Source: Candidatus Omnitrophota bacterium (GTDB taxonomy: Bacteria; Omnitrophota; Gorgyraeia; Gygaellales; Profunditerraquicolaceae). From it: a stretch of DNA of 64,000 nt. Both the position numbers and the translations under genes were made by a program. The stretch's first letter is position 1. Every line of letters starts with the position of its first letter. The DNA lies in assembly GCA_049517335.1 (NCBI GenBank), contig JBEKSD010000002.1, positions 78,523 through 142,522 on the forward strand, given 5' to 3'. This document shows, in pieces, positions 2,150-36,353 of the stretch. The notes under the pieces were generated by a model, which saw only the letters and a list, made by a program, of their open reading frames with translations, did not search any database and was not told the DNA's origin.

Positions 2150-3859
2150 ATGAATGTAGCTGAACTTAGCGCACTATTCCGCAATATTGCAAGCATACTG
2201 GAAATAAGGGGCGAGAATGTTTTCCGTATCCGCGCGTACGAGAAAGCCGCCGAAAGTATTGAGCGTTTCCCTAATACGCTTGAAACCCTGATTAAAGAAG
2301 ACAGGCTTAGCGAAATCCCCGGTATCGGCAAAGACCTCTCGTTAAAGATTAAAGAATTCTACGCAACAGGAAAGATCAAAGCTTACGAAGACCTAAAAAA
2401 AACAATCCCCCAAGGCCTGCTTGAGCTCCTTAATATCCCTTCGGTCGGCCCGAAAACTGCAAAACTCCTTTTTGAAAAATTAAAAATTAAGAGCCTTGCC
2501 GACCTTGAAAAAGCCATCAAGCAGAATAAATTAACCGGGCTAGCCGGAATAAAAGAGAAAACGATCCAAAATATCGCAAAAGGCCTTGAAATATTAAAAA
2601 AGGGGAGAAAACGCATGACCCTCCAGCAGGCAATGGACCTTTCAGATACTTTCCTCTCCAATATGAGCAAGACCCCCGAAGTAAAAGACATTGAAACTGC
2701 GGGATCCCTGCGGAGGAAAACGGAAACTGTCGGTGACATTGATATACTGATTACCTCAAAAGAACCGGAAAAAATAATGGATCTTTTTGTAAAATTACCC
2801 GACGTAAAAACTGTTTTAGCTAAAGGCGAAACTAAATCCTCAATACGCACCAAAAACGACATTCAGGTTGACTGCCGCGTGGTTGAACAAAGGTCATTCG
2901 GGGCTGCCTTATTATATTTTACCGGCTCCAAAGACTTTAATATCAGGCTCCGGCAGCTTGCTATAAAAAAAGGGTTAAAAATAAATGAATACGGCGTATT
3001 CAGGAAGGATAAATTTATCTGCGGCAGGACGGAAGAGGAGATCTTTAAGACCCTCGGCATGAGTTTCGTGGTGCCTGAATTGCGAGAAAACAGAGGGGAG
3101 ATAGAGCTGGCTTTAAAGGGAAAATTACCTGAGCTGATCGGGTTAAAAGACATTAAAGGTGACCTACATGTTCATTCCGAATGGTCTGACGGGCTTAACT
3201 CCATTACCGAGATGGCCGAGGCAGCAAAGGCTTTAGGATATTCCTATATTGCCGCAACCGACCACTCACAAAGTTTAAAAGTCGCTGGTGGCTTAAACGT
3301 TAAGAGACTGCTGGAGAAAAAAAAGGAAATTGAAAAAATTAACTCACGCTTGAGTAATTTCAGGGTCCTCTTAGGTACGGAAGCAGAAATAGATTCTGAC
3401 GGTAATATTGATTATAGCGATAAAATCTTGAAAGAAATAGACATCGTTGTTGCCGCCATACATTCTGGTTTTAAACAGGGGAAAGATAAGCTTACCAAGA
3501 GAACAATCAAAGCCTGCTCCAATAAATACGTACATATAATCGCCCATCCTACGGGAAGGCTCTGGGGGATGCGGGACGCTTATGAACTGGATTTTAAGGA
3601 AATTTTTAAGGCTGCCCATGATACGAATACTGCATTGGAAATCAACTCTTACCCCGAGCGCCTTGATTTAAACGACAACAATGCCCGTGCAGCAGTTGAA
3701 GAAAAAGTAAAATTAGCCGTTAATACGGATGCCCATAGAATTGAACACTTAAAAGCAATACAGTTCGGCCTTGCGGTCGCCCGCAGGGGCTGGGTGGCTA
3801 AAGATGACGTAATCAATACTTTAACAGTAGATAATTTATTAAAAAAAATAAAAAAATAA
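2150..3859 (+). CDS. polX: DNA polymerase X family protein with C-terminal PHP phosphoesterase domain
   Basis: 569 aa; Pol-beta-like HhH/palm N-terminus (GIGKDLSLKI, DIDIL); PHP His/Asp motifs (HVHSEWSDG, ATDHSQS). Confidence 0.8.
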   Translation: MNVAELSALFRNIASILEIRGENVFRIRAYEKAAESIERFPNTLETLIKEDRLSEIPGIGKDLSLKIKEFYATGKIKAYEDLKKTIPQGLLELLNIPSVGPKTAKLLFEKLKIKSLADLEKAIKQNKLTGLAGIKEKTIQNIAKGLEILKKGRKRMTLQQAMDLSDTFLSNMSKTPEVKDIETAGSLRRKTETVGDIDILITSKEPEKIMDLFVKLPDVKTVLAKGETKSSIRTKNDIQVDCRVVEQRSFGAALLYFTGSKDFNIRLRQLAIKKGLKINEYGVFRKDKFICGRTEEEIFKTLGMSFVVPELRENRGEIELALKGKLPELIGLKDIKGDLHVHSEWSDGLNSITEMAEAAKALGYSYIAATDHSQSLKVAGGLNVKRLLEKKKEIEKINSRLSNFRVLLGTEAEIDSDGNIDYSDKILKEIDIVVAAIHSGFKQGKDKLTKRTIKACSNKYVHIIAHPTGRLWGMRDAYELDFKEIFKAAHDTNTALEINSYPERLDLNDNNARAAVEEKVKLAVNTDAHRIEHLKAIQFGLAVARRGWVAKDDVINTLTVDNLLKKIKK

Positions 3860-4732: not shown

Positions 4733-7324
4733 ATGAAAAATAACGGTATAAAAAATAAAACCGCCCTTAAAACTAACCTGCACTATAAATCTCAGGACAT
4801 GGACTTTGACTACATAAATTGTACCACGGAATTACTTTTTGATAAATTCAAAACAACAGAAAAAGGCCTTTCGGAAAATGAAGCCTCCCGCAGGCTAGCC
4901 GACTACGGCTATAATGAACCCGCCAAAAAAAAGAAAAGAACCATTGCTAGGGAAATTCTGTCCAAGTTCGTTAACCCTCTAGTTATAGTATTGCTTATCA
5001 TTGCTGGTTTCTCATTGTTTTTCGGTGAGAAAATAAGCGCTTTAATAGTTTCCCTCATGGCTATTATGAGTGTTACGCTTGCTTTTGTGCAAGAACACCG
5101 CGCAAGCAAGGCAGCTGAAAAGCTTAGCGAAATGGTGCGTACTACCGCCACCGTTATACGTAATGGTAAACCAAAAGAGATAAGTATTAAGGAAATAGTT
5201 CCTGGAGATGTTGTTGATCTTTTCGCAGGAGACATGATTCCCGCTGATTTACGCATAATTTCCTGCAAGGACCTGTTTATTAATCAGGCTTCTTTAACCG
5301 GAGAGTCTTTCCCGATTGAGAAAGTAGCTACTCCTATTACTCCCAAAAATAATTCTATTTCTGAATTAAATAACATTGCCTTTATGGGTTCAAGTGTTGT
5401 TAGTGGTACCGCTTTGGGTGTAGTCATAAAAACCGGCATAGCTACACAATTCGGAGAACTCTCACGTAAACTTACTACCATACGCATAGAAACTAGCTTT
5501 GATAAAGGAGTTAATAAGTTTACGATGTTAATGGTTAAGGTAATGATTTGTATGGTCGTGGTTATCTTTGCTATCATTGCTTTTCGCCATGGGAATTTTA
5601 TTGAAGCGCTGCTTTTTTCTCTTGGTGTTGCAGTTGGTCTTACGCCCGAAATGCTTCCCATGATTGTAACACTGAATCTTTCCAAGGGTGCAATTTCCAT
5701 GTCAAAAAAAGAAGTTATTGTCAAACGTCTGAATTCTATTCAGAACTTCGGTGCCATGGATGTCTTATGCACGGATAAAACCGGTACTCTTACCATGGAC
5801 AAGATTGTGTTAGAAAAACACTGCGATGTAGTGAGAAAAAATGACGATGATACCCTACGCTACGCTTACATCAATAGTTTTTATCAGACGGGCCTTAAGA
5901 ACCTTTTAGATAGGGCAATACTTAAGTATGAAAAATTACTGGTAAAGCAATATAAAAAGGTTGATGAGATACCGTTTGATTTTTCTAGGAAGATCATGTC
6001 TGTAGTAGTCGAGGCAGAGGATAAACACAAGATTATTTCAAAAGGTGCGCCGGAAGAGATATTCAAAAGATGTACTCAGTACGAGTTGGACGGAGAGATT
6101 AATGATATTGACCCACTTATTATTTCAGATCTAAAAGAGGAATTTGATAGTTTAAGCGCAGATGGTTTTAGGGTTTTGGCTGTCGCATATAAAAATTTCG
6201 ATAATAAGAAAGACGCATATTCAAAAGATGATGAGAAAGATTTGATTCTTAAAGGCTACATTGCTTTCCTTGATCCTCCAAAAACAAGTTCAAAAAGGGC
6301 TATTCAAGCGCTTAAAAAACTGGGTATAGATTTTAAGGTTTTAACTGGAGACAATGAATTAGTCACTAGAAAAATATGCAGTGAAGTTGGCCTGGATGTC
6401 AAAGGGTTAGTAACCGGAGATATAGTAGAAAAGGCAAGTGATAACGAACTAAAAGAGTTAGTGAAAACAACTAATATTTTTTCTAGGCTTTCACCTATGC
6501 AAAAAGAAAGAGTAATTCATGCCCTACATGCCAATGGGCATATCGTAGGCTATCTGGGTGACGGCATAAACGACGCTCCGGCATTAAAAAGTTCGGATGT
6601 CGGGATTTCGGTAAATAATGCAGTAGATATTGCCAAGGAATCGGCTGATATCATCTTGCTTAAAAAGAGCCTTATGGTCTTAGAGGACGGTGTAGTAGAG
6701 GGAAGAAAAGTCTTCGGTAATATTATTAAATATATTAAGATGGGTTCAAGCTCTAACTTCGGGAACATGTTTAGCATGACTGGCGGTAGCTTGTTTTTGC
6801 CGTTTTTGCCGATGTTGCCTATCCAGATTCTTTTGAATAATTTCCTTTATGATGTATCGCAGATTGCGATTCCTACTGATCAGGTTGATAATGAATATAT
6901 ACTGAAACCTAGGCCTTGGAACGTTAAGTATATCAGGAATTTTATGATGATTATTGGGCCAATCAGCTCAATTTATGATTTTCTAACTTATGGGGTTATG
7001 TTATTTATTTTTCATTCTTCAGCCGAACTTTTTCATACCGGTTGGTTTATAGAATCATTATGTACTCAGACTTTAGTTATACATATAATCCGAACAGGAA
7101 AAATTCCTTTTGTTGAGAGCCGGCCGAGTAGATTCTTAATGTTGATGTCTTTGCTTATAGTTTCTATAGGCATTGCTATCCCATTTAGCCCATTAGCTAA
7201 ACCTTTCGGGTTTGTAAAGCCGCCGCCTATGTATTTTGTGGCACTATTTATTATGACTGTTACTTACTTGTTTCTTGTTCAATTAGTTAAGAAATGGTTT
7301 ATTAGGAAGTACGGTTATGAATGA
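4733..7324 (+). CDS. mgtA: Magnesium-translocating P-type ATPase
   Basis: 863 aa; DKTGTLT phosphorylation motif, PEMLP motif in TM4, GDGINDAPAL hinge; no heavy-metal-binding N-domain. Confidence 0.8.
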   Translation: MKNNGIKNKTALKTNLHYKSQDMDFDYINCTTELLFDKFKTTEKGLSENEASRRLADYGYNEPAKKKKRTIAREILSKFVNPLVIVLLIIAGFSLFFGEKISALIVSLMAIMSVTLAFVQEHRASKAAEKLSEMVRTTATVIRNGKPKEISIKEIVPGDVVDLFAGDMIPADLRIISCKDLFINQASLTGESFPIEKVATPITPKNNSISELNNIAFMGSSVVSGTALGVVIKTGIATQFGELSRKLTTIRIETSFDKGVNKFTMLMVKVMICMVVVIFAIIAFRHGNFIEALLFSLGVAVGLTPEMLPMIVTLNLSKGAISMSKKEVIVKRLNSIQNFGAMDVLCTDKTGTLTMDKIVLEKHCDVVRKNDDDTLRYAYINSFYQTGLKNLLDRAILKYEKLLVKQYKKVDEIPFDFSRKIMSVVVEAEDKHKIISKGAPEEIFKRCTQYELDGEINDIDPLIISDLKEEFDSLSADGFRVLAVAYKNFDNKKDAYSKDDEKDLILKGYIAFLDPPKTSSKRAIQALKKLGIDFKVLTGDNELVTRKICSEVGLDVKGLVTGDIVEKASDNELKELVKTTNIFSRLSPMQKERVIHALHANGHIVGYLGDGINDAPALKSSDVGISVNNAVDIAKESADIILLKKSLMVLEDGVVEGRKVFGNIIKYIKMGSSSNFGNMFSMTGGSLFLPFLPMLPIQILLNNFLYDVSQIAIPTDQVDNEYILKPRPWNVKYIRNFMMIIGPISSIYDFLTYGVMLFIFHSSAELFHTGWFIESLCTQTLVIHIIRTGKIPFVESRPSRFLMLMSLLIVSIGIAIPFSPLAKPFGFVKPPPMYFVALFIMTVTYLFLVQLVKKWFIRKYGYE

Positions 7325-27937: not shown

Positions 27938-28543
27938 TCAATATTTTCTTATTACTGTAATAAGCTTGCCTATAACCTTAAATTCTTCAAATATTGGCGG
28001 GTAGTTCTGATTAGCGGCTTCTAAATGGAACTTACCGGCTTTAGTACGTAGCCTCTTTAAAGTAACTTCATTATTATCTAAGAGTGCCGCGACTATATCG
28101 TTATTACTGGCATCAGGCCGTTTTTTGATAATGGCAATATCGCCATCAAGAATTCCAGCACCAATCATACTGTCGCCTTTAACCCTTAAAGCAAAAACAT
28201 CATCAAAGCCTAAGCGGCCAAGGAATAAATCATCGGCATCCACATAACCCTGGATTTCTTCATAAGCCAGATTCGGCTTACCGGCCATTATGGTGCCAAT
28301 TATGGGAATCTTGTTAAAGCTGGCGCACTCAGTTAATTCAATTGCCCGGGATTTATTGTTCATACGCCTGACCAAGCCTTTCTGCATTAAAGCCTTTAAA
28401 TAGTCCCTTACTGTGCCCGTGGATTTAAACCCCAGCTCCTCCCCTATTTCACGGATTGTAGGAGGGAGCCTCTCCCCTACCTGTTTACGGATAAAATTAA
28501 GCACTTTTTCCTGCTTCGCAGTCAAATTCGGCTTCTTTTCCAT
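27938..28543 (-). CDS. lexA: LexA repressor
   Basis: about 201 aa from the internal start MEKKPN; N-terminal wHTH IREIGEELGFKSTGTVRDYLKALMQKG; cleavage site A-G; S24 peptidase VKGDSM...K dyad. The track start at 28564 lies inside the operator palindrome. Confidence 0.85.
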   Translation of the reverse strand: MEKKPNLTAKQEKVLNFIRKQVGERLPPTIREIGEELGFKSTGTVRDYLKALMQKGLVRRMNNKSRAIELTECASFNKIPIIGTIMAGKPNLAYEEIQGYVDADDLFLGRLGFDDVFALRVKGDSMIGAGILDGDIAIIKKRPDASNNDIVAALLDNNEVTLKRLRTKAGKFHLEAANQNYPPIFEEFKVIGKLITVIRKY

Positions 28544-28555
28544 GCTTCCACATAT

Positions 28556-28573
28556 ACCACACATTTGTGTGGT
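28556..28573. promoter_or_regulatory. Perfect palindrome ACCACACA-TT-TGTGTGGT in the lexA promoter spacer (candidate LexA operator/SOS box)
   Basis: Lies between a TTGACA -35 and a TATATG -10 on the minus strand, 13-30 nt upstream of the lexA start codon. Confidence 0.45.
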
Positions 28574-29217: not shown

Positions 29218-29333
29218 ACTGTTTTGGGTAAATTACCTATTTCCTAATTATATCACTTCCATTTCAAAATAGTAAATGATTTAGAAAAAAGGGTGGCTGA
29301 ACGATTACTAAACACATCTATTTTCAAATTCAC

Positions 29334-29484
29334 GAGGTGACTCCCTTGAGGACGGGCAGTAATATTGCACAAGGGGACGCCCTCTCTGTAAACAGCTATT
29401 GGCAAATTTGAGAGGTATTCCCGTTAAGGACCCCAGAAAGGAGTCACCATAGAAAGACTCTCTGTAAACAGGTAGGGCAAAATT
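29334..29484. repeat. Two tandem diverged copies (A 29334-29409, B 29410-29484) of an intergenic repeat family (GAGGTGACTCCC...CTCTCTGTAAACAG.TA..GGCAAA)
   Basis: A and B share their 3-prime halves; A carries GGTGACTCC and B its reverse complement GGAGTCACC; a third copy lies at 35079-35131. Confidence 0.5.
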
Positions 29485-29501: not shown

Positions 29502-30167
29502 TTAAATACATAAAGATGAATCTTCACGAGAAACAATCCTACCATCCTTAAGATAAACCACCCTCGCTGCCTGCGAGCCGAGCTTAGGGTTATGCGTAGT
29601 CAATATAACTGTAAGGTTTTCTTTCTTATTTAAATCAGCCAGTAGGCCAAAAATATCCTCACCGCTTTTTGTATCCAGGTTTCCCGTTGGCTCATCGGCA
29701 AAAAGGATCTTTGGCGATGTAACCAAAGCACGGGCAATAGCCACCCTCTGTTTCTCTCCTCCGGAAAGCTCTTTTGGCAAATGATTTATACGTTTTCCTA
29801 GTCCGACCCGTTCCAATAATTCTCTCGCCTGCCTAGCCTGCTGCGACATGCGCGCAAAAAGCAAAGGCAGTTGCACGTTTTCAATCGCTGTAAGCGTAGG
29901 GATAAGCAAAAAATCCTGAAACACAAATCCTAAATACTTACGGCGCATTGAAACAAGCACATTCTCCTTTGCCTTCGAAACATCTTTACCAAGTATACTT
30001 AAACTCCCACTTGTAATTGTAGTTAAGCAACCAAGGCTATCAAGCAACGTAGTTTTACCTGATCCGGATGGCCCCATAATAGCGATAAAATCTCCTGCCG
30101 CTACCTCAAGATTAACATCACGCACAGCATAAATCTCTTCGGCCAAGAGTTTATAAACTTTAGTCAA
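29502..30167 (-). CDS. ABC transporter ATP-binding protein (MacB/LolD-type)
   Basis: 221 aa; Walker A GPSGSGKTT, signature LSGGEKQRVAIARAL, Walker B ILFADEPT. Confidence 0.85.
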   Translation of the reverse strand: MTKVYKLLAEEIYAVRDVNLEVAAGDFIAIMGPSGSGKTTLLDSLGCLTTITSGSLSILGKDVSKAKENVLVSMRRKYLGFVFQDFLLIPTLTAIENVQLPLLFARMSQQARQARELLERVGLGKRINHLPKELSGGEKQRVAIARALVTSPKILFADEPTGNLDTKSGEDIFGLLADLNKKENLTVILTTHNPKLGSQAARVVYLKDGRIVSREDSSLCI

Positions 30168-30199
30168 TTTATTTGCTTAAATTATATATTCTTTCATAA

Positions 30200-31387
30200 C
30201 TATTCTCCCGCGCGAATCGCTTCTACTGGTTTCATTAGCGATGCCCGCAATGCCGGATATGCCCCGGCCATCAAACCCATAGCCACCGTGGCAAAAAAGG
30301 CTATCAAAAGAAACTCTGGTTTAATCAATACGAGTTTCCCTGACGGCGCATAAGGGAGGGTGTGACGGATGATTTTTTCTACAAGCGCGCTTCCTATAGA
30401 GGCAAGCATCACTCCAAATAACCCGCCGAATACGCAGATAAGCACTGTCTCTGCCCAGATTACCTTAAAGATATCTAGAGCCGAAGCTCCTAAAGCCTTC
30501 ATTACTCCTATTTCACGTGTACGTTCAAAAACCGACATCAGTATTGTGTTGGTTACGCCGATAACCGCAATAAAAATAGCGATTAATGCTATGGAATTAG
30601 CCATTGCCCGCGCCGAAGCCACGAGGTTGAGAATCGTTCCGCGTACCTGGGCAAGGCTGACCACCTGAATCCCCGGTTCGTTGTAAAGCGATTCTTCGAA
30701 CTCACCTATCTGCTGAATATTCTTAAGCTTTATACCAATACCAGTGAGTTTACCTGGTAAATTAAATATACGCTGTGCAGTAGCAAGCGGGATAAAAATA
30801 ACTCCGTCATCTTGTGTTCCGGTACGCTCAAATATCCCTTTCACGGTAAGCACCTTATTAATTCCGGAAACAAAAATCTTATCACCTATTAATCTCTGCT
30901 CTAATTCCGCGGCTTCATAGCCCATGATTGTCTCATCTGCATCGGAACCGGAAAACCATCCGCCGGATTTAAACTTCGACCAAGGTTTTAACTCAATGTA
31001 AGATTTATCTATGCCCATGTAAAGAGCAAATGATCCACGGTTCTGCGGACCGCCTTCCTGATTATAAACACTGGAAACCAATTGGGGCGTGATCTTGTCT
31101 ATGTGCTTGTCTTGTATTATACGCTTATAAACCGCATCATCCATATAGCGTAGCCCGCCGCCACCTTGAAGCATCAGCGTTGCCGCCTCATAGGGACAAC
31201 CCTTAGCCGTAACTAAAAGATGGTAGCCCAATTTATCAATATCCTTATTTAACCCGTTTTGATAACCTGCATCAAAACCAAAAAGACTAACTAATACCGC
31301 AACTGCCACTGCCACGCCTCCTATGGTAAGAGCAGTGCGAATTTTCTTACGTTTCAGGTTCTTATACGCTAAAGAGATGAATTTCAT
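30200..31387 (-). CDS. ABC transporter permease, FtsX/MacB family
   Basis: 395 aa; N-terminal TM helix, large periplasmic domain, C-terminal FtsX 3-TM bundle. Confidence 0.8.
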   Translation of the reverse strand: MKFISLAYKNLKRKKIRTALTIGGVAVAVAVLVSLFGFDAGYQNGLNKDIDKLGYHLLVTAKGCPYEAATLMLQGGGGLRYMDDAVYKRIIQDKHIDKITPQLVSSVYNQEGGPQNRGSFALYMGIDKSYIELKPWSKFKSGGWFSGSDADETIMGYEAAELEQRLIGDKIFVSGINKVLTVKGIFERTGTQDDGVIFIPLATAQRIFNLPGKLTGIGIKLKNIQQIGEFEESLYNEPGIQVVSLAQVRGTILNLVASARAMANSIALIAIFIAVIGVTNTILMSVFERTREIGVMKALGASALDIFKVIWAETVLICVFGGLFGVMLASIGSALVEKIIRHTLPYAPSGKLVLIKPEFLLIAFFATVAMGLMAGAYPALRASLMKPVEAIRAGE

Positions 31388-31758
31388 TTAAGCTCAACTC
31401 CTTCTCCAATAACGGAAATTTGATTATCTTCTTTTTTTACCTTGCCCTCTGCCACTACCTTGCTACCGACTGCCTGCGGTATGGCTATTTCAGAAGGATG
31501 CAAGTCAACTAATATAACTCCCGTAGCATCCTTAAGCATGAACCATCCTCCGGCAGGGCATTCCTGGACAATTTTTCCCTCTAGCCGTACGGACTTCCCG
31601 GAGAACTGATCTGATTGCTTTAAAATTTCTGTCACGGTAGTAACTTTTGCTTGACTAAGCTGGCTGCCGTAAATTCCTGGCTTCTTAGCGCAGCCGTAGA
31701 GAACAAACCATATGGAAATACCCGAAATCAACGTAAAAACTAATAATATTTTCTTCAT
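31384..31758 (-). CDS. Lipoprotein with BOF/YgiW-like OB-fold domain
   Basis: 124 aa; lipobox LYGC; pattern TVTEILKQSDQFSGKSVRLEGKIV...FMLKDATGVILVDL...GSKVVAEGKV typical of YgiW/BOF OB folds. Confidence 0.45.
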   Translation of the reverse strand: MKKILLVFTLISGISIWFVLYGCAKKPGIYGSQLSQAKVTTVTEILKQSDQFSGKSVRLEGKIVQECPAGGWFMLKDATGVILVDLHPSEIAIPQAVGSKVVAEGKVKKEDNQISVIGEGVELK

Positions 31759-31770
31759 CTAAACTCTCCT

Positions 31771-32361
31771 TTATTTCTGCGAAAGTAGCAATAGATCCAA
31801 AAGAATCATATTTTTTCTCAATCCCCGTAACGTCGCCCGGAAATCCTCAGGGCTGTTTGAGCTTGGGTCTTTTACAGAAACATTCCCCTTGATAAAATCG
31901 TCCAGCGTCAGGCCTTTGAACTGTGAAGTAAATTTAGTATTCATAAACTTGCCTGCTTCTGGAGAAGACATCTTTTGGTAATAGAAATCGACTATCTTAC
32001 CGTTTAAATCAGTGGCCATAATAAGCTGCATCCCCCCGTATTTGCCTTTTTGGTTTACCCCATGGACATAGCCGATTGGATCTTTACCCTTAAGCACCGT
32101 GTAAAAAACATAAGGAACATCCAAATTCTCATATACCGGCTCAAGTTTGTCATTCAGTTTATCTTCCACTTCTTTCTTTAATGTTTCTCCACCTTTTTCC
32201 TTAATAGTAACAAAGGTGGTTTTATAGCCGGTGGACTCTGGAAAGATCCTCGCTATGTCTCGGTCAGGGTCATTAAGGCTACAGCCCACCGCAGCCCAGG
32301 CAGAGCTGACGAATAAAAACAGCACGGCAAGAACCATTAGAGTCTTAAATATTTTTTTCAT
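31771..32361 (-). CDS. secreted periplasmic protein (weak FMN_bind-like pattern)
   Basis: Start set at the internal MKKIFKTL signal peptide; no firm motif. Confidence 0.4.
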   Translation of the reverse strand: MKKIFKTLMVLAVLFLFVSSAWAAVGCSLNDPDRDIARIFPESTGYKTTFVTIKEKGGETLKKEVEDKLNDKLEPVYENLDVPYVFYTVLKGKDPIGYVHGVNQKGKYGGMQLIMATDLNGKIVDFYYQKMSSPEAGKFMNTKFTSQFKGLTLDDFIKGNVSVKDPSSNSPEDFRATLRGLRKNMILLDLLLLSQK

Positions 32362-32362
32362 C

Positions 32363-33376
32363 TTAGTCCCCCAAGAAATAGAATTGCACCACAAATCTAT
32401 CTTCCGGCTTTGTATTCATCATACCAAAATCATGCAAGTATGCCGCGCTCAGCTTTGTCGACTGGCTTAGCCTGTATGTTGCACCAAGAGTAAGTGTAGG
32501 CTCATCACTAGATTTTATATGCATATCATTAATCCATGATTTATACTGCAACTCAAACTCTATGTTCTGATGCGCAGGAAGCGTGTAAACTATCTCAGTA
32601 AGATAGCCCAATACCTCATTTTTATCATCGCGGCCATAAGCACATTCTCCCTTAAAAAGAAACGGTCCGTAAAGATACTGTCCGTCTAAACCTACTCTAT
32701 TCTTATTCATCGCATCGGGTGATAAAAGCTTATCTTCAGGAAAAGTACGCATGCCTTCGCTCTCTAGGGTGCGGCCAGATAATAATGAGAGCCCAGCTTG
32801 TAAATTTCTACCTTGGGGTGTTCCTATTCTTAACGTTGCCAGATAGCTGTCGTCCTGGCGGCGTATGCTCATGCCTGATCCTGTTTGCAGACTGGCTTCG
32901 TAATCAAACTTTGGAAATGATCCGCGCATCTGCACACCCCAGTCTTTGTTAAATCCAATATCCTGGTCAGCTAAAGTCTGCAGTAACGTGCTGTGCGTAT
33001 CTACCACCGGCTCAAGGCCAAACGAGGGGGTAAAATGCCCCCCTCTTATTTTAAGATACTGCGAGATTTTATACTCGAGCCAGGCATTATGAATCTCTGC
33101 TCCCCCTGCCTGGTGGGAATTCTCCCTGCTATCATAGGCAGCGCGCATCTGCAGGTCAGCGGTAAGAAAATCTCCGTAATCTCCGGAAAACTTACGGTAT
33201 AATTCAAAACCTGCGGAGCTGTTCATTGTCCCGTTTTTGTCAATCCAACCATCCCGACTGGAATAACCTCCTATAAGGTTTAGTTCCTTATAGAAAAACC
33301 CTTCAGAATCTGCAAAAGCCCAAGATACAGGAAATAAAGCTATTAAGGCTAAGACTATTAATGATTTATAGGGCAT
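32363..33376 (-). CDS. putative outer-membrane beta-barrel protein
   Basis: 337 aa; signal peptide ...SWAFA; alternating aromatic beta-strand pattern; C-terminal YFLGD. Confidence 0.45.
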   Translation of the reverse strand: MPYKSLIVLALIALFPVSWAFADSEGFFYKELNLIGGYSSRDGWIDKNGTMNSSAGFELYRKFSGDYGDFLTADLQMRAAYDSRENSHQAGGAEIHNAWLEYKISQYLKIRGGHFTPSFGLEPVVDTHSTLLQTLADQDIGFNKDWGVQMRGSFPKFDYEASLQTGSGMSIRRQDDSYLATLRIGTPQGRNLQAGLSLLSGRTLESEGMRTFPEDKLLSPDAMNKNRVGLDGQYLYGPFLFKGECAYGRDDKNEVLGYLTEIVYTLPAHQNIEFELQYKSWINDMHIKSSDEPTLTLGATYRLSQSTKLSAAYLHDFGMMNTKPEDRFVVQFYFLGD

Positions 33377-33384
33377 AAATCTTT

Positions 33385-33666
33385 TTACAATTTCCTGAAC
33401 TGTCGGATAAGCTGCAGTATCTCCTCAATCTTTTTTGCGCGCTCAACTCCTGACTTGCCCCGTATAGCTTCGCTGACGCAACCGTTAAAGTGTCTCTCCA
33501 AAACTTTATCTTCTACAGAAACAAGTGCTTTCATTACCGCATGCGTCTGATTGAGGATATCCACGCAATACTTGCGCTCTTCAATCATTCTCTGTATTCC
33601 CCGCACCTGGCCCTCTATCCTCTTTAATGCCACGATGCTCTCTGTGTGATTCGGATATTCCTTCAT
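33385..33666 (-). CDS. CsoR/RcnR/FrmR-family metal-sensing transcriptional repressor (DUF156)
   Basis: About 93 aa from the internal start MKEYPNH; RIEGQVRGIQRMIEE..YCVDIL.Q..AV..AL signature; C-terminal HFNGC. Confidence 0.7.
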   Translation of the reverse strand: MKEYPNHTESIVALKRIEGQVRGIQRMIEERKYCVDILNQTHAVMKALVSVEDKVLERHFNGCVSEAIRGKSGVERAKKIEEILQLIRQFRKL

Positions 33667-33694
33667 AATGCTTCCCTCCTTTATCGTTGTATAT

Positions 33695-33724
33695 AGCATA
33701 CAATAGGGAGGTATAGTATGTCAA
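33695..33724 (-). promoter_or_regulatory. candidate sigma-70 promoter of the csoR-like gene with an embedded ATAC-N-GGGAGG-TAT candidate operator
   Basis: Minus strand reads TTGACAtactatacctccctattgTATGCT, 18-nt spacer; the spacer holds a G/C tract flanked by ATAC/GTAT, reminiscent of CsoR/RcnR sites. Confidence 0.4.
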
Positions 33725-33738
33725 GTATTTTATTAAGA

Positions 33739-33779
33739 CCTGCCCGTGCAAATATTAGCTATAATTACATCCTACGGTA
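33739..33779. repeat. Copy D1 of a 41-nt duplicated segment (core TGCAAATATTAG.TATAATTA.ATC)
   Basis: About 80% identical over 41 nt to 34985-35025; lies between the MFS stop and the csoR promoter. Confidence 0.5.
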
Positions 33780-33785
33780 TTAATT

Positions 33786-34967
33786 CTAATCAGAATATGC
33801 TTTTTGTTTACTGATAGCGCTAATAAATATTGGTAAAGCGGCAATCTGTAAGACTACTGAAAAGATAATCAGGGCAGGCAGTGATTTAACATATAGAATT
33901 CCCATAATAGCGCTCCCTAAAAACCAGGCAATTCCAAATCCGGTATCAAATACACCGAATGCTGTGCTTCTCTTATCTCTGGAAATCACATTAGCGAGCG
34001 TTGCTTTAAGAAGAGATTCTTGCGCACCCAAGCCAATACCCCAGAGTATCATGCCGATAATAATCAAAAAGAACTTGCCCAAGAAGACAAACGGAGCAAA
34101 GAATGCCCCGAGGAAAAAGGCAACTAGCATCACCTTTGGGCCTATTTTGTCTAATAAGCGGCCGAAAATAAGAGAACTGATTCCCGCCATGGCCATAGCT
34201 ACCGCATAAAGAATCGGAATCCAATGCATGGGAACATTTTTTGTTTTATCAAAATGAAATGCGATTAAAGCAAAATCTGCGAATCCCGCTCCAATCAAGG
34301 CTCCACCTGACAGATAAAGCCAGTAAACCTTTGTTAATCCTTTGGTTTCTAAGCCTACAGCTTCTTTTTTATCTAAATCCTGAGGCTTAGGAAAAAACAA
34401 TCTTGCAGCTACAAGCATTACTATACACAATAGTGCTGATATCAAAAGAACGCCATATCCGTATTTATAACTATTTTTTATAAATAACACCCAAGCCACA
34501 ATTAAAGGACCTATTGTTGCACCAAACTGATCCATGAACTCATTAAGCCCGAATACCCAGCCGATACCCATTTCTTTGCCAGCGAAGGAAAGCATGGTCT
34601 CTACCGCTGGTTTCCTGATAGCTCTTCCTGTGCGCTCTAGGATTATCAACACGCAAGCCACGGGCCAATTACCTGCTAAGGCCAAGGCAGGCACGGCAAG
34701 CATATTAATTGCATAACCAACAAAGGCAAAAATCCAATATTTGTGAGTTTTATCGGCAAAAAATCCTGCTATGGAGCGTAGCGCGTAACCGAGTAATTCT
34801 CCAAGACCAGCTACAAATCCCACTACAACGGCACTAGCGCCTAAACTGGATAAAAATGCTCCATTAATACTTCTTCCTCCTTCATAGGTAAAGTCTGCAA
34901 ATAAATTTACAATGCCTATAATCAGCACAAATTCAAATGCAAGTTGAGCAATATTCTTTTTATTCAT
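33786..34967 (-). CDS. MFS transporter
   Basis: About 393 aa from MNKKNIAQ; 12 predicted TM helices. The track start at 34997 falls inside duplicated element D2, where copy D1 reads ACG instead of ATG. Confidence 0.75.
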   Translation of the reverse strand: MNKKNIAQLAFEFVLIIGIVNLFADFTYEGGRSINGAFLSSLGASAVVVGFVAGLGELLGYALRSIAGFFADKTHKYWIFAFVGYAINMLAVPALALAGNWPVACVLIILERTGRAIRKPAVETMLSFAGKEMGIGWVFGLNEFMDQFGATIGPLIVAWVLFIKNSYKYGYGVLLISALLCIVMLVAARLFFPKPQDLDKKEAVGLETKGLTKVYWLYLSGGALIGAGFADFALIAFHFDKTKNVPMHWIPILYAVAMAMAGISSLIFGRLLDKIGPKVMLVAFFLGAFFAPFVFLGKFFLIIIGMILWGIGLGAQESLLKATLANVISRDKRSTAFGVFDTGFGIAWFLGSAIMGILYVKSLPALIIFSVVLQIAALPIFISAISKQKAYSD

Positions 34968-34984
34968 AATTTTTATTATTAAAT

Positions 34985-35025
34985 CCTGTCCATGCAAATA
35001 TTAGATATAATTATATCTTGTAGTA
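34985..35025. repeat. Copy D2 of the 41-nt duplicated segment, immediately upstream of the MFS gene
   Basis: See D1; contains TATAAT-like and TTGCAT-like hexamers on the minus strand. Confidence 0.5.
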
Positions 35026-35078
35026 AGAGATAGTTCAAGATAATCTGATGCCTTTTTTTAGACTTGTCTGAAATTTAA

Positions 35079-35131
35079 GAGGTGACTCCCGTAAGGACGC
35101 CCAGAAATACGGCGCGACAGAAAGACTCTCT
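35079..35131. repeat. Copy C of the GAGGTGACTCCC...AGAAAGACTCTCT intergenic repeat family
   Basis: Shares GAGGTGACTCCCGTAAGGACGCCCAGAAA with copy A and AGAAAGACTCTCT with copy B; lies upstream of the MFS gene (minus). Confidence 0.5.
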
Positions 35132-35216
35132 ATATATAAGCTTTTATAGTTTATATTTAACTCACTCAACACCTGTCTAACCTTCTCCCTCGAATCTCTA
35201 CAGTTAAATTCCCTCT

Positions 35217-36353
35217 CTAAAACCTAACATATTTCTCCGCTTTCTTAATCATCTTAGTTTGCCTGCCTAAGTCTTTGAGAGAGTGAAGCTTTGCTCCATT
35301 TTCCCGCAACGCAAGTATCCGCTCAACCATCACCTGCCCTAAACCGGGAACGCGAAGCAGGTGGTATTTATCAGCATTATTGATATTCACGGGGAAAAAC
35401 TCCGGGTGCAACCTCGCCCACATCTCTTTTGGGTCAAGGCTAAGGGATAGATTGCCGTCTGCCTCAAGAGGAATTTCATCACCTAAAAAGCCGTATTTAC
35501 GGATAAGCCAGTCCGCCTGATAGAGACGGTGCTCGCGCGTTAAAAGGTCGCTGTTATTGACGCTCGATTGTTCACCGGGCAGTTCAGGAGAGCCTGCGCC
35601 GCGCTGGTAAGCGCTAAAATAGATTCGGCTTAAGCCTAATTCCTTATATAATTTCCAAGAGTAGCTGAGAATCTCCTTGTCTGTTTCTTCTGCAGCACCC
35701 ACTACAAACTGGGTAGTATGTTTAACTCCTGCGTAGTAAGAGCCTTTTGCCGTAAGGCGGCTAATGAGCTGTATCGGACGAATGATATCGCGAAGATAAT
35801 TTTTGGTAGTACTTAGATGCCTGAAATTATTTTCACCAGCAGTTTCAATATTTAACGATACAGCGCTTGCCAAGGCAAGGCTTGAGCGAATAGCCGCATC
35901 AGATGCGCCGGGAATAATTTTTAAATGAATGTAACCCCTGAACTGCTTCCTGCGCAAATTAAGCGCCACGCGGTTAATACGCTCCATAGTAGCATCAGGG
36001 CTGTTGCTTACTGCGCTGCTTAAAAAAAGGCCGCTTACCCTGCAGGTTTTGTAATAGGAAAGAAAGGTACTGGTTAACTCCTCAGGGCTCAAGGAACAGC
36101 GCTGGGCGTCTTTCCCAACTCTGAGTGGACAGTATTTACAGTTATTGACGCACTCATTAGAAAGCAAGGTCTTAAAAAGATACATGTATCCGCCGTTAGG
36201 AAGGGTAACCGGGTATATCCATTTATTATCTTTTGAGCGCTTGCGGTGCTCATCTTCTCGGGTTGCGCAGGCACAGGCAAGATCGTATTGTGAATCCTGC
36301 GATAAAATCGTAAGCTTTTCGGTAGTATCAAGACTTCTCTTAATTAATGCCAT
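35217..36353 (-). CDS. putative DNA modification/repair radical SAM protein (TIGR03916-like) with C-terminal HhH
   Basis: 378 aa; CVNNCKYCPLR radical-SAM cluster motif; C-terminal HhH LLRVPGLGQVMVERIL. Confidence 0.7.
   Translation of the reverse strand: MALIKRSLDTTEKLTILSQDSQYDLACACATREDEHRKRSKDNKWIYPVTLPNGGYMYLFKTLLSNECVNNCKYCPLRVGKDAQRCSLSPEELTSTFLSYYKTCRVSGLFLSSAVSNSPDATMERINRVALNLRRKQFRGYIHLKIIPGASDAAIRSSLALASAVSLNIETAGENNFRHLSTTKNYLRDIIRPIQLISRLTAKGSYYAGVKHTTQFVVGAAEETDKEILSYSWKLYKELGLSRIYFSAYQRGAGSPELPGEQSSVNNSDLLTREHRLYQADWLIRKYGFLGDEIPLEADGNLSLSLDPKEMWARLHPEFFPVNINNADKYHLLRVPGLGQVMVERILALRENGAKLHSLKDLGRQTKMIKKAEKYVRF

Follow-up and report, generated by a model that had tools for sequence, protein, structure and literature searches.

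A 42-nt direct repeat around a major facilitator superfamily gene in an Omnitrophota genome, probably the scar of an insertion ahead of a csoR-headed operon

Type-2 CsoR operators follow the rule 5'-TAC-X9-GTA-3', with the streptomycete consensus ATATACCCCTNAGGGGTATAT, and have been described for csoR/copZA of S. lividans and for sites in B. subtilis, S. aureus and L. monocytogenes (PMC3902906). In these systems the TAC-X9-GTA dyad surrounds a G/C tract, the csoR gene is autoregulated through an operator that overlaps its core promoter, and the repressor carries a C-H-C triad. The type-1 operators of RcnR and FrmR, repressors of the same family (PF02583), have TACT/AGTA flanks around an uninterrupted G6 tract. 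Here, we analyse a locus with a repressor of this family in a 64-kb stretch of DNA from a Candidatus Omnitrophota bacterium (64,000 nucleotides of contig JBEKSD010000002.1; hereafter the window). A csoR-like gene heads an operon and is preceded by a gene for a transporter of the major facilitator superfamily (MFS), which is bracketed by two direct copies of a 42-nt sequence. The repeat is probably a by-product, or scar, of the lineage-specific insertion of an MFS cassette in front of the autoregulated csoR operon.

Two further kinds of described system resemble the bracketed MFS gene. In the duplicated junctions of integrated DNA, whether attL and attR or the redundancy left by tandem or concatemeric DNA, direct repeats bracket an acquired segment and one end of each copy is incoming and the other resident DNA, joined at a microhomology; the copies in the window can be read in the same way. 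Integron gene cassettes share with the MFS gene a single open reading frame (ORF), a very short conserved 5' leader and an occurrence in many unrelated contexts, and here also the flanking by similar repeats. The target-site duplications of transposons are short (2-14 bp), identical and located outside terminal inverted repeats, and are accompanied by a transposase. All of the genes around the MFS and csoR genes lie on the minus strand, in the order of transcription radical-SAM gene, 249-nt spacer, MFS gene, 119-nt spacer, csoR and then the outer-membrane protein (OMP) and ABC genes. The features at the insertion are as follows.

35217-36353, minus strand: radical-SAM/HhH DNA-repair-type gene.
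35010..35038, minus strand: predicted sigma-70 promoter of the MFS gene, with -35 TTGAAC at 35038..35033, a 17-nt spacer and -10 TATAAT at 35015..35010.
35003..35018, no strand assigned: perfect 16-bp palindrome AGATATAATTATATCT, overlapping the MFS -10.
34976..35017, minus strand: repeat copy A, GATATAATTATATCTAATATTTGCATGGACAGGATTTAATAA on the gene strand, which includes the -10 and the likely start of transcription as well as most of the 5' leader.
33786..34967, minus strand: MFS transporter gene (ATG at 34967, stop at 33786), 393 residues, Pfam MFS_1.
33730..33771, minus strand: repeat copy B, GATGTAATTATAGCTAATATTTGCACGGGCAGGTCTTAATAA on the gene strand, which repeats the MFS 5' flank in part and has TGTAAT for TATAAT.
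33385..33666, minus strand: csoR-like repressor gene, 93 residues, PF02583.

The preliminary description of this DNA reported a 41-nt segment duplicated at about 80% identity, and the segments that it compared (33739-33779 and 34985-35025) indeed agree at 33 of 41 positions (80%). The best ungapped register is 33730-33771 against 34976-35017, in which 36 of 42 positions are identical (86%). The placement of the copies was also described correctly, with copy B adjoining the csoR -35 and copy A just 5' of the MFS start. Copy A stops 8 nt short of the MFS ATG (34967..34965), at 34976. Copy B begins 14 nt past the MFS stop and extends to 33730, leaving 5 nt to the csoR -35; the distance from copy to copy is 1246 nt. 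The two have identical runs of 12 nt (CTAATATTTGCA) and 8 nt in common. Gapped alignment did not extend the repeat significantly past 42 nt in either direction. The alignment of the left flanks, in which a resemblance to the 3' end of the MFS gene had been considered as an extension, was rejected as not significant (116/300 and 507/2000 shuffles); a comparable flank resemblance in L001, the closest MFS homologue (loci fetched for comparison carry L numbers), is marginal (39/1000 shuffles).

Both regions are A/T-rich, with TATAAT-like and TTTAATAA-like strings that recur in promoters, and the terminal ~10 nt seem to have separate origins in the two copies, as might be expected if two promoter regions resembled each other by chance. 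However, when both intergenic regions were shuffled, on average 22.5 and at most 28 of 42 positions matched, compared with the 36 observed. The 25-nt core TGCAAATATTAGNTATAATTANATC has exactly two matches in 64 kb when three mismatches are allowed (0.00 expected from whole-window shuffles), and at the same tolerance the 20-nt G/C-containing part of the repeat matches only at these two sites (0.07 expected). A chance resemblance is effectively refuted by these shuffle statistics and we give it next to no weight. A third copy is absent from the 64-kb window and from viral contigs, and the 21-nt core of the repeat is missing from the 94 loci fetched by then, except those identical to the window.

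The two copies differ in their promoter content. Copy A starts with GA-TATAAT and its remainder would be an untranslated, A/T-rich leader without a Shine-Dalgarno sequence. The MFS promoter matches the consensus at 10 of 12 positions and is the best promoter match in the region; its -10 alone lies inside the repeat, the -35 being outside. In copy B the -10 position reads TGTAAT, there is no -35 and the palindrome is broken by three mismatches. Homologues of the MFS protein align from residue 1 (MNKKN) of the ORF that starts at ATG 34967, and at the nucleotide level the homology ends 6-27 nt before this codon. ATG 34967, at which the homologues all begin, is the true start. It had been proposed that an ATG at 34997, corresponding to ACG in the other copy, was not the true start. 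The real start does lie downstream, but codon 34997 is a TTG in frame with the MFS ORF, and the ATG-to-ACG difference, which exists, is located at 34993..34991 and out of frame. A leader peptide from ATG 34993 was discarded, as it opens only four codons and its start is ACG in copy B. The reading of the repeat as a structured cis-regulatory RNA was also set aside: the z-scores of the predicted folds of both copies and of the MFS-csoR spacer are 0.09 to 0.85, the fold of the MFS leader is likewise not significant against shuffles, and Rfam gave no match at the gathering threshold and just a 16-bit chance match at E<=1.

The evidence for an insertion comes from relatives of the locus. A scan with the porin of the operon yielded 40 metagenomic loci. 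The MFS gene and the repeat are absent from all of the ~40 related csoR/porin/ABC loci, the closest included, and the upstream radical-SAM gene is likewise absent from all 40. The closest csoR relatives are L105 and L106 (89% nucleotide identity, with CsoR 94-95% identical) and L053 (87% nucleotide identity). In L053 the segments that match window positions 35146-35074 and 33734-33300 are only 33 nt apart, compared with 1339 nt in the window, and homology to the csoR-upstream DNA begins at 33734. In L105 and L106 the csoR promoter directly adjoins a pyruvate kinase gene, and the match to the window begins at 33738, inside the end of copy B. The DNA upstream of csoR in the closest relatives bears no relation to the window up to a point 5-9 nt short of the end of copy B. 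The final ~9 nt of this copy (TCTTAATAA) are homologous to the csoR-upstream DNA of the relatives and are ancestral csoR-upstream sequence. The almost contiguous flanks in the relatives therefore place the MFS gene and both copies, save for these ~9 nt of copy B, in DNA that the relatives lack.

Copy A matches the 5' flanks of other MFS genes. Together with a preceding ACAA, its left part matches the MFS 5' flank of L095 at 29 of 41 positions (p=0.004), located further upstream in L095, and its right 22 nt match the MFS flank of L108 at 18 of 22. The leader GATTTAATAATAAAAATT-ATG is identical in L095, L103 and L104. Two adjacent mismatches at the right end separate the copies by origin: copy A has AT, as in the MFS leader of relatives, whereas copy B has TC, as in the csoR-upstream DNA of L105. 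The homology to MFS relatives indicates that copy A is the MFS cassette's own, native 5' flank. Nucleotide homology to L001 ends at 34973 and 33793, just inside both repeat copies.

We propose that a horizontally mobile, single-gene MFS cassette was inserted between a conserved intergenic element of ~73 nt (35067..35140, described below) and the promoter of the csoR operon. Copy A is the 5' flank of the cassette and would supply the MFS -10, the transcription start and the A/T-rich leader lacking a Shine-Dalgarno sequence; copy B is a truncated second copy of this flank, left 3' of the MFS gene. In the simplest histories, the latter probably arose either through insertion of a little over one cassette unit, the donor being tandem or concatemeric, or through later deletion of the coding part from a tandem duplicate. 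Copy B would have been joined to the csoR-upstream DNA at a short A/T-rich microhomology (ATTTAATAA / TCTTAATAA), where the ancestral nature of its last ~9 nt places the junction. Having lost the -10 and the palindrome, copy B is presumably functionally inert. The MFS gene would be transcribed from its own promoter, independently of CsoR, and since no terminator is predicted between MFS and csoR this promoter probably reads through into the csoR operon.

Several points weigh against this reconstruction. The copies differ at 6 of 42 positions (14%), and a recent simple duplication would be identical; the divergence implies that either the duplication is old or the two copies come from different cassette alleles. 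No empty-site or tandem-cassette intermediate was found among the loci compared, so the event itself is only inferred, and no source was found for the 56 nt that separate copy A from the ~73-nt element. The perfect 16-bp palindrome over the MFS -10 resembles a repressor site, and a factor recognising both copies is possible. Finally, the structure is present in one genome only, as the sequences of L052 and L093 are identical to the window.

The same arrangement could be produced if the copies were attL/attR-like products of site-specific or short-homology (Campbell-type) integration of a circular MFS cassette of ~1.25 kb, which they could also excise. The single-gene insert is promoter-proximal and has a direct repeat right at either side, 1246 nt apart, and the right ends of the repeats are hybrid as in attL and attR, with copy A representing the donor leader and copy B recipient DNA; two other loci also have direct repeats around inserted DNA (L055, 24 nt, 22/24 identical; L039, 25 nt). 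These repeats are, however, unrelated in sequence, eight other close MFS loci are without a flanking repeat and no att sequence is conserved at other MFS insertion sites. Among 41 MFS loci tested for flanking direct repeats only L039 stood out, besides an 11-nt match in L032; none was found at L095, L096, L099, L100, L102, L107 and L108. The recipient lineage has no pre-existing 42-nt target, the copies are 14% divergent and there is no integrase or transposase within ~10 kb. Attachment-site integration is an unlikely origin of the repeat, which keeps some weight through the hybrid ends and the two analogous loci. An integron attC cassette was rejected: no GTTRRRY or RYYYAAC core lies within ~60 nt of either copy, there is no imperfect hairpin, the fold energies being no better than those of shuffles, and neither a cassette array nor IntI was found, with no integrase among the 20 ORFs between 24347 and 42478 that were profiled by family. 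The upstream copy, moreover, carries its own promoter element, which is a further difference from integron cassettes. A transposon target-site duplication was rejected because the repeat is 42 nt long and 86% identical, with no terminal inverted repeats and no transposase.

The preliminary description took the duplication to be a shared, possibly metal-responsive input to the regulator and the MFS gene. On such a reading, both copies would bind the same transcription factor, which would repress MFS at -10/+1 and act on the csoR promoter from about -40 to -80, so that the transporter and the metal operon are co-regulated. Both copies do sit in promoter regions, copy A has its perfect 16-bp palindrome over the -10, and the 12-nt (CTAATATTTGCA) and 8-nt runs are preserved between the copies. 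However, none of the related csoR loci and none of the fetched flanks of other MFS loci contain the sequence. The duplication is not conserved in any related locus, even the closest, which is an outcome that the preliminary description itself had named as refuting its reading. The palindrome in copy B is broken by three asymmetric mismatches, the mismatches between the copies are evenly spread without sparing the half-sites and no third copy occurs in 64 kb. Within ~10 kb no regulators were found besides CsoR and a LexA homologue, and the CsoR box is very different from the repeat and missing at the MFS promoter. We know of no LexA-box type that resembles the 42-nt repeat. It is the 5' flank of the MFS cassette, and not a common operator, from which both copies derive, and copy B has lost its -10 and palindrome. 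A shared input through the duplication is not supported, and the probability that the repeat is a common operator is low, slightly below that of an attachment-site origin.

An operator is nevertheless present at the csoR promoter itself, as the preliminary description had recognised in the promoter spacer. Its features, and the adjoining ribosome-binding site, are as follows.

33695..33724, minus strand: csoR promoter, with -35 TTGACA at 33724..33719, an 18-nt spacer and -10 TATGCT at 33700..33695.
33698..33714, minus strand: predicted CsoR type-2 operator ATACCTCCCTATTGTAT, a TAC-N9-GTA dyad around a C-tract; ATACAATAGGGAGGTAT on the plus strand.
33681..33674, minus strand: csoR Shine-Dalgarno sequence AAGGAGGG.

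The dyad is spelled A-TAC-CTCCCTATT-GTA-T at 33714..33698 and conforms to the 5'-TAC-X9-GTA-3' rule. It lies between the -35 TTGACA and the -10 TATGCT, the first 3 nt of which it shares. The earlier assignment to the RcnR type (TACT-G6-N-AGTA) is not borne out. Like type-1 RcnR/FrmR operators, the site has a G-tract with A/T-rich inverted-repeat flanks in the regulator's own promoter, but its flanks are ATAC/GTAT, 9 nt separate TAC from GTA, the tract is interrupted (GGGAGG) and the spacing differs; the window protein also has Cys rather than His at the fourth ligand position. The site fits type 2 instead. In 17 of the 40 porin-scan loci csoR lies immediately upstream of the porin gene, and all 17 orthologous promoters have the same canonical box, 23-91 nt upstream of csoR; it is present in L105 and L106 too. 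In eight close orthologues this position reads TTGACATAC(T/C)ATACCCCCCTATGGTATA(A/C)T and the csoR -35 and spacer are conserved, the spacer columns being invariant (nine-sequence alignment A1). The orthologous boxes range from ATACCCCCCTATGGTAT to perfect palindromes such as ATACCCCCCGGGGGTAT, and distant orthologues have near-perfect to perfect boxes such as ATACCCCCTAGGGGTAT. The CsoR box occurs once in the 64-kb window; there is none at the MFS promoter and no convincing other box in the 64 kb. Taken together, the only conserved regulatory site at the locus is an ordinary autoregulatory CsoR operator in the csoR promoter, and the MFS gene is predicted not to be under a CsoR operator.

The window box departs from the clade consensus ATACCCCCCTATGGTAT by two changes, CCTCCC for CCCCCC and TGTAT for GGTAT, and the same interrupted C-tract and altered half-site distinguish it from the described type-2 operators. 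The window -10 is TATGCT, compared with TATAAT or TATACT in the clade, and the operator and -10 together (33695-33714) are the most diverged of the clade. It is a speculation of ours that the degenerate box and -10 reflect relaxed constraint after the insertion of a promoter upstream. In the minimum-energy fold of a read-through transcript (33674-33712, minus strand) the operator C-tract CCUCCC pairs with GGAGGG of the csoR Shine-Dalgarno sequence, but the fold is no more stable than shuffles (z-score 0.27). The C-tract would be missing from any transcript that starts at csoR's own promoter.

The protein matches PF02583 over residues 9-88 with 90.6 bits (cutoff 22.8), and its best NCBIfam match is RicR, below the equivalog cutoff. 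The Cu(I)-type x-C-H-C fingerprint is present as C34, H59 and C63 and is conserved in all 17 orthologues. His7 (33646-33648), located ~10 residues before the (L/V)xR(I/V)EGQ motif, is also kept in 17 of 17 orthologues. InrS is a nickel sensor with an H-C-H-C ligand pattern. The apo form of CsoR would bind the predicted box and repress the csoR, porin, lipoprotein, BOF and MacB-type ABC genes, and would be released from the box by an effector. In view of the C-H-C triad this effector is most likely Cu(I); the conserved H7 gives the H-C-H-C pattern of InrS, so the effector may not be copper, and could be nickel. Self-repression at the box and release by Cu(I), like binding itself, are predictions from the sequence.

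The regulator had also been linked to a downstream ABC/OMP locus, and this link is supported: csoR heads a tight, conserved operon with intergenic gaps of -4 to 32 nt from csoR to the ATPase gene. The downstream genes were identified by profile matches and their order is conserved in L053-L090.

29502..33376, minus strand: overall span of the operon genes after csoR.
32363-33376, minus strand: porin-like OMP, 337 residues.
31771-32361, minus strand: lipoprotein, 196 residues.
31384-31758, minus strand: BOF/YgiW-like OB-fold lipoprotein.
30200-31387, minus strand: MacB/FtsX-type permease.
29502-30167, minus strand: ABC ATPase.
27938-28564: LexA homologue, the only regulator besides CsoR found within ~10 kb.

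The order csoR, porin, lipoprotein, BOF, permease and ATPase recurs across these dozens of loci from sediment and peat metagenomes. The largest difference from the described type-2 systems is in the genes controlled, as the window operon encodes a porin, two lipoproteins and a MacB-type ABC exporter and not copZ/copA; neither CopA nor CopZ is encoded in it. Richness in His, Met or Cys is not visible in the operon proteins, and a literature search found no description of a CsoR-regulated MacB/porin system. In L105 (5087-6201), which is the closest csoR relative, the gene called at the place of the porin has only 239 residues compared with 337 in the window, and a 73-nt element lies within ~300 nt after it, the same element lying downstream of the ABC gene in the window. 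The short gene and the nearby element suggest that L105 has lost the lipoprotein, BOF, permease and ATPase genes by deletion.

Direct repeats of this ~73-nt intergenic element (roughly CTGTTTACAGAGAGTCTTTCTG...GTCCTTACGGGAGTCACCTCTCAAATTT) lie on both sides of the csoR-to-ABC module, and no other copies occur in the 64 kb.

35067..35140, minus strand: upstream copy, marking the left edge of the DNA that the window has in common with relatives without the MFS gene.
29473..29401 and 29397..29323, minus strand: two tandem copies just downstream of the ABC ATPase gene (0/500 shuffles reach the score).

Elsewhere the element is found in L053 (3050-3121), L055 (266-333, 995-1067 and 5830-5890), L105 (6142-6201) and L107 (4190-4220), and as four tandem copies in L061 (8591-8875); two sequence subtypes can be distinguished. 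A structured RNA was rejected, with a z-score of -0.02, no consensus structure or covariation among 11 copies and no Rfam match. The element could be of a kind with repetitive extragenic palindromic (REP) sequences, or a module boundary prone to recombination.

Other insertions were observed at this site and around other MFS copies. In L055 (266-1806) and the matching region of L054, genes for a TauE-like protein of 119 residues and an azoreductase-like protein of 206 residues are inserted at the site occupied by the MFS gene in the window, replacing the csoR promoter and the first ~55 csoR codons. Both inserted genes have a copy of the ~73-nt element in front of them, and in L055 a 24-nt direct repeat (22/24 identical; 419-442 and 1767-1790) encloses the insertion. 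In L039 a frameshifted MFS copy (86% nucleotide identity to that of the window) lies between 25-nt direct repeats at 3814-3838 and 5183-5207, which are 21/25 identical, the core score being reached in 1/3000 shuffles. The left repeat copy lies inside a small ORF that, judged by eye, resembles a GIY-YIG-type gene. The observations on L055, L039 and the ~73-nt element keep alive a more general reading, in which the interval between this element and the csoR/porin operon is a recurrent Omnitrophota capture site for one- or two-gene cassettes, integrase-independent and leaving direct repeats of 24-42 nt. We consider it improbable; should it hold, the duplicated flanks and the ~73-nt element would be the marks of a new form of mobility for cassettes.

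The MFS gene has thousands of homologues, with copies of 83-93% amino-acid identity in metagenome-assembled genomes (MAGs) labelled Omnitrophota, Sedimentisphaerales/Planctomycetota, Aminicenantes and others. Every homologue examined is in a different context and never beside a csoR, porin or radical-SAM gene. Throughout the clade (L001-L051 and L095-L108) it is always a single gene in a new context, with only ~13-20 nt of 5' leader travelling along. The distribution looks like recent cross-phylum transfer in peat and sediment communities, with MAG binning errors possible. The MFS gene of the window has no compositional anomaly, its GC content of ~0.40-0.42 being like that of its neighbours. 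A contig with P0011 and P0018 as tandem MFS paralogues was discounted, as it is an inverted duplicate of one region and possibly an assembly artefact. In L095 and L103 (ENA contig_157420, 35.9 kb) an MFS-containing gene set is present twice, inverted and with frameshift-like differences between the arms, which are probably a palindromic assembly artefact and not true paralogues.

The locus carries a caution for the reading of promoters, namely that a statistically significant duplication in a promoter region can be an insertion scar and not a sign of shared control. The predicted CsoR-controlled operon consists of a porin, lipoproteins and a MacB-type ABC exporter in place of CopZ and CopA, and it is conserved together with textbook CsoR boxes. 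The MFS gene is a strikingly mobile single-gene unit, with 83-93% amino-acid identity among MAGs labelled as different phyla. In this genome, its insertion put a constitutive-looking promoter upstream of a putatively metal-repressed operon that has the most degenerate box and -10 of its clade.

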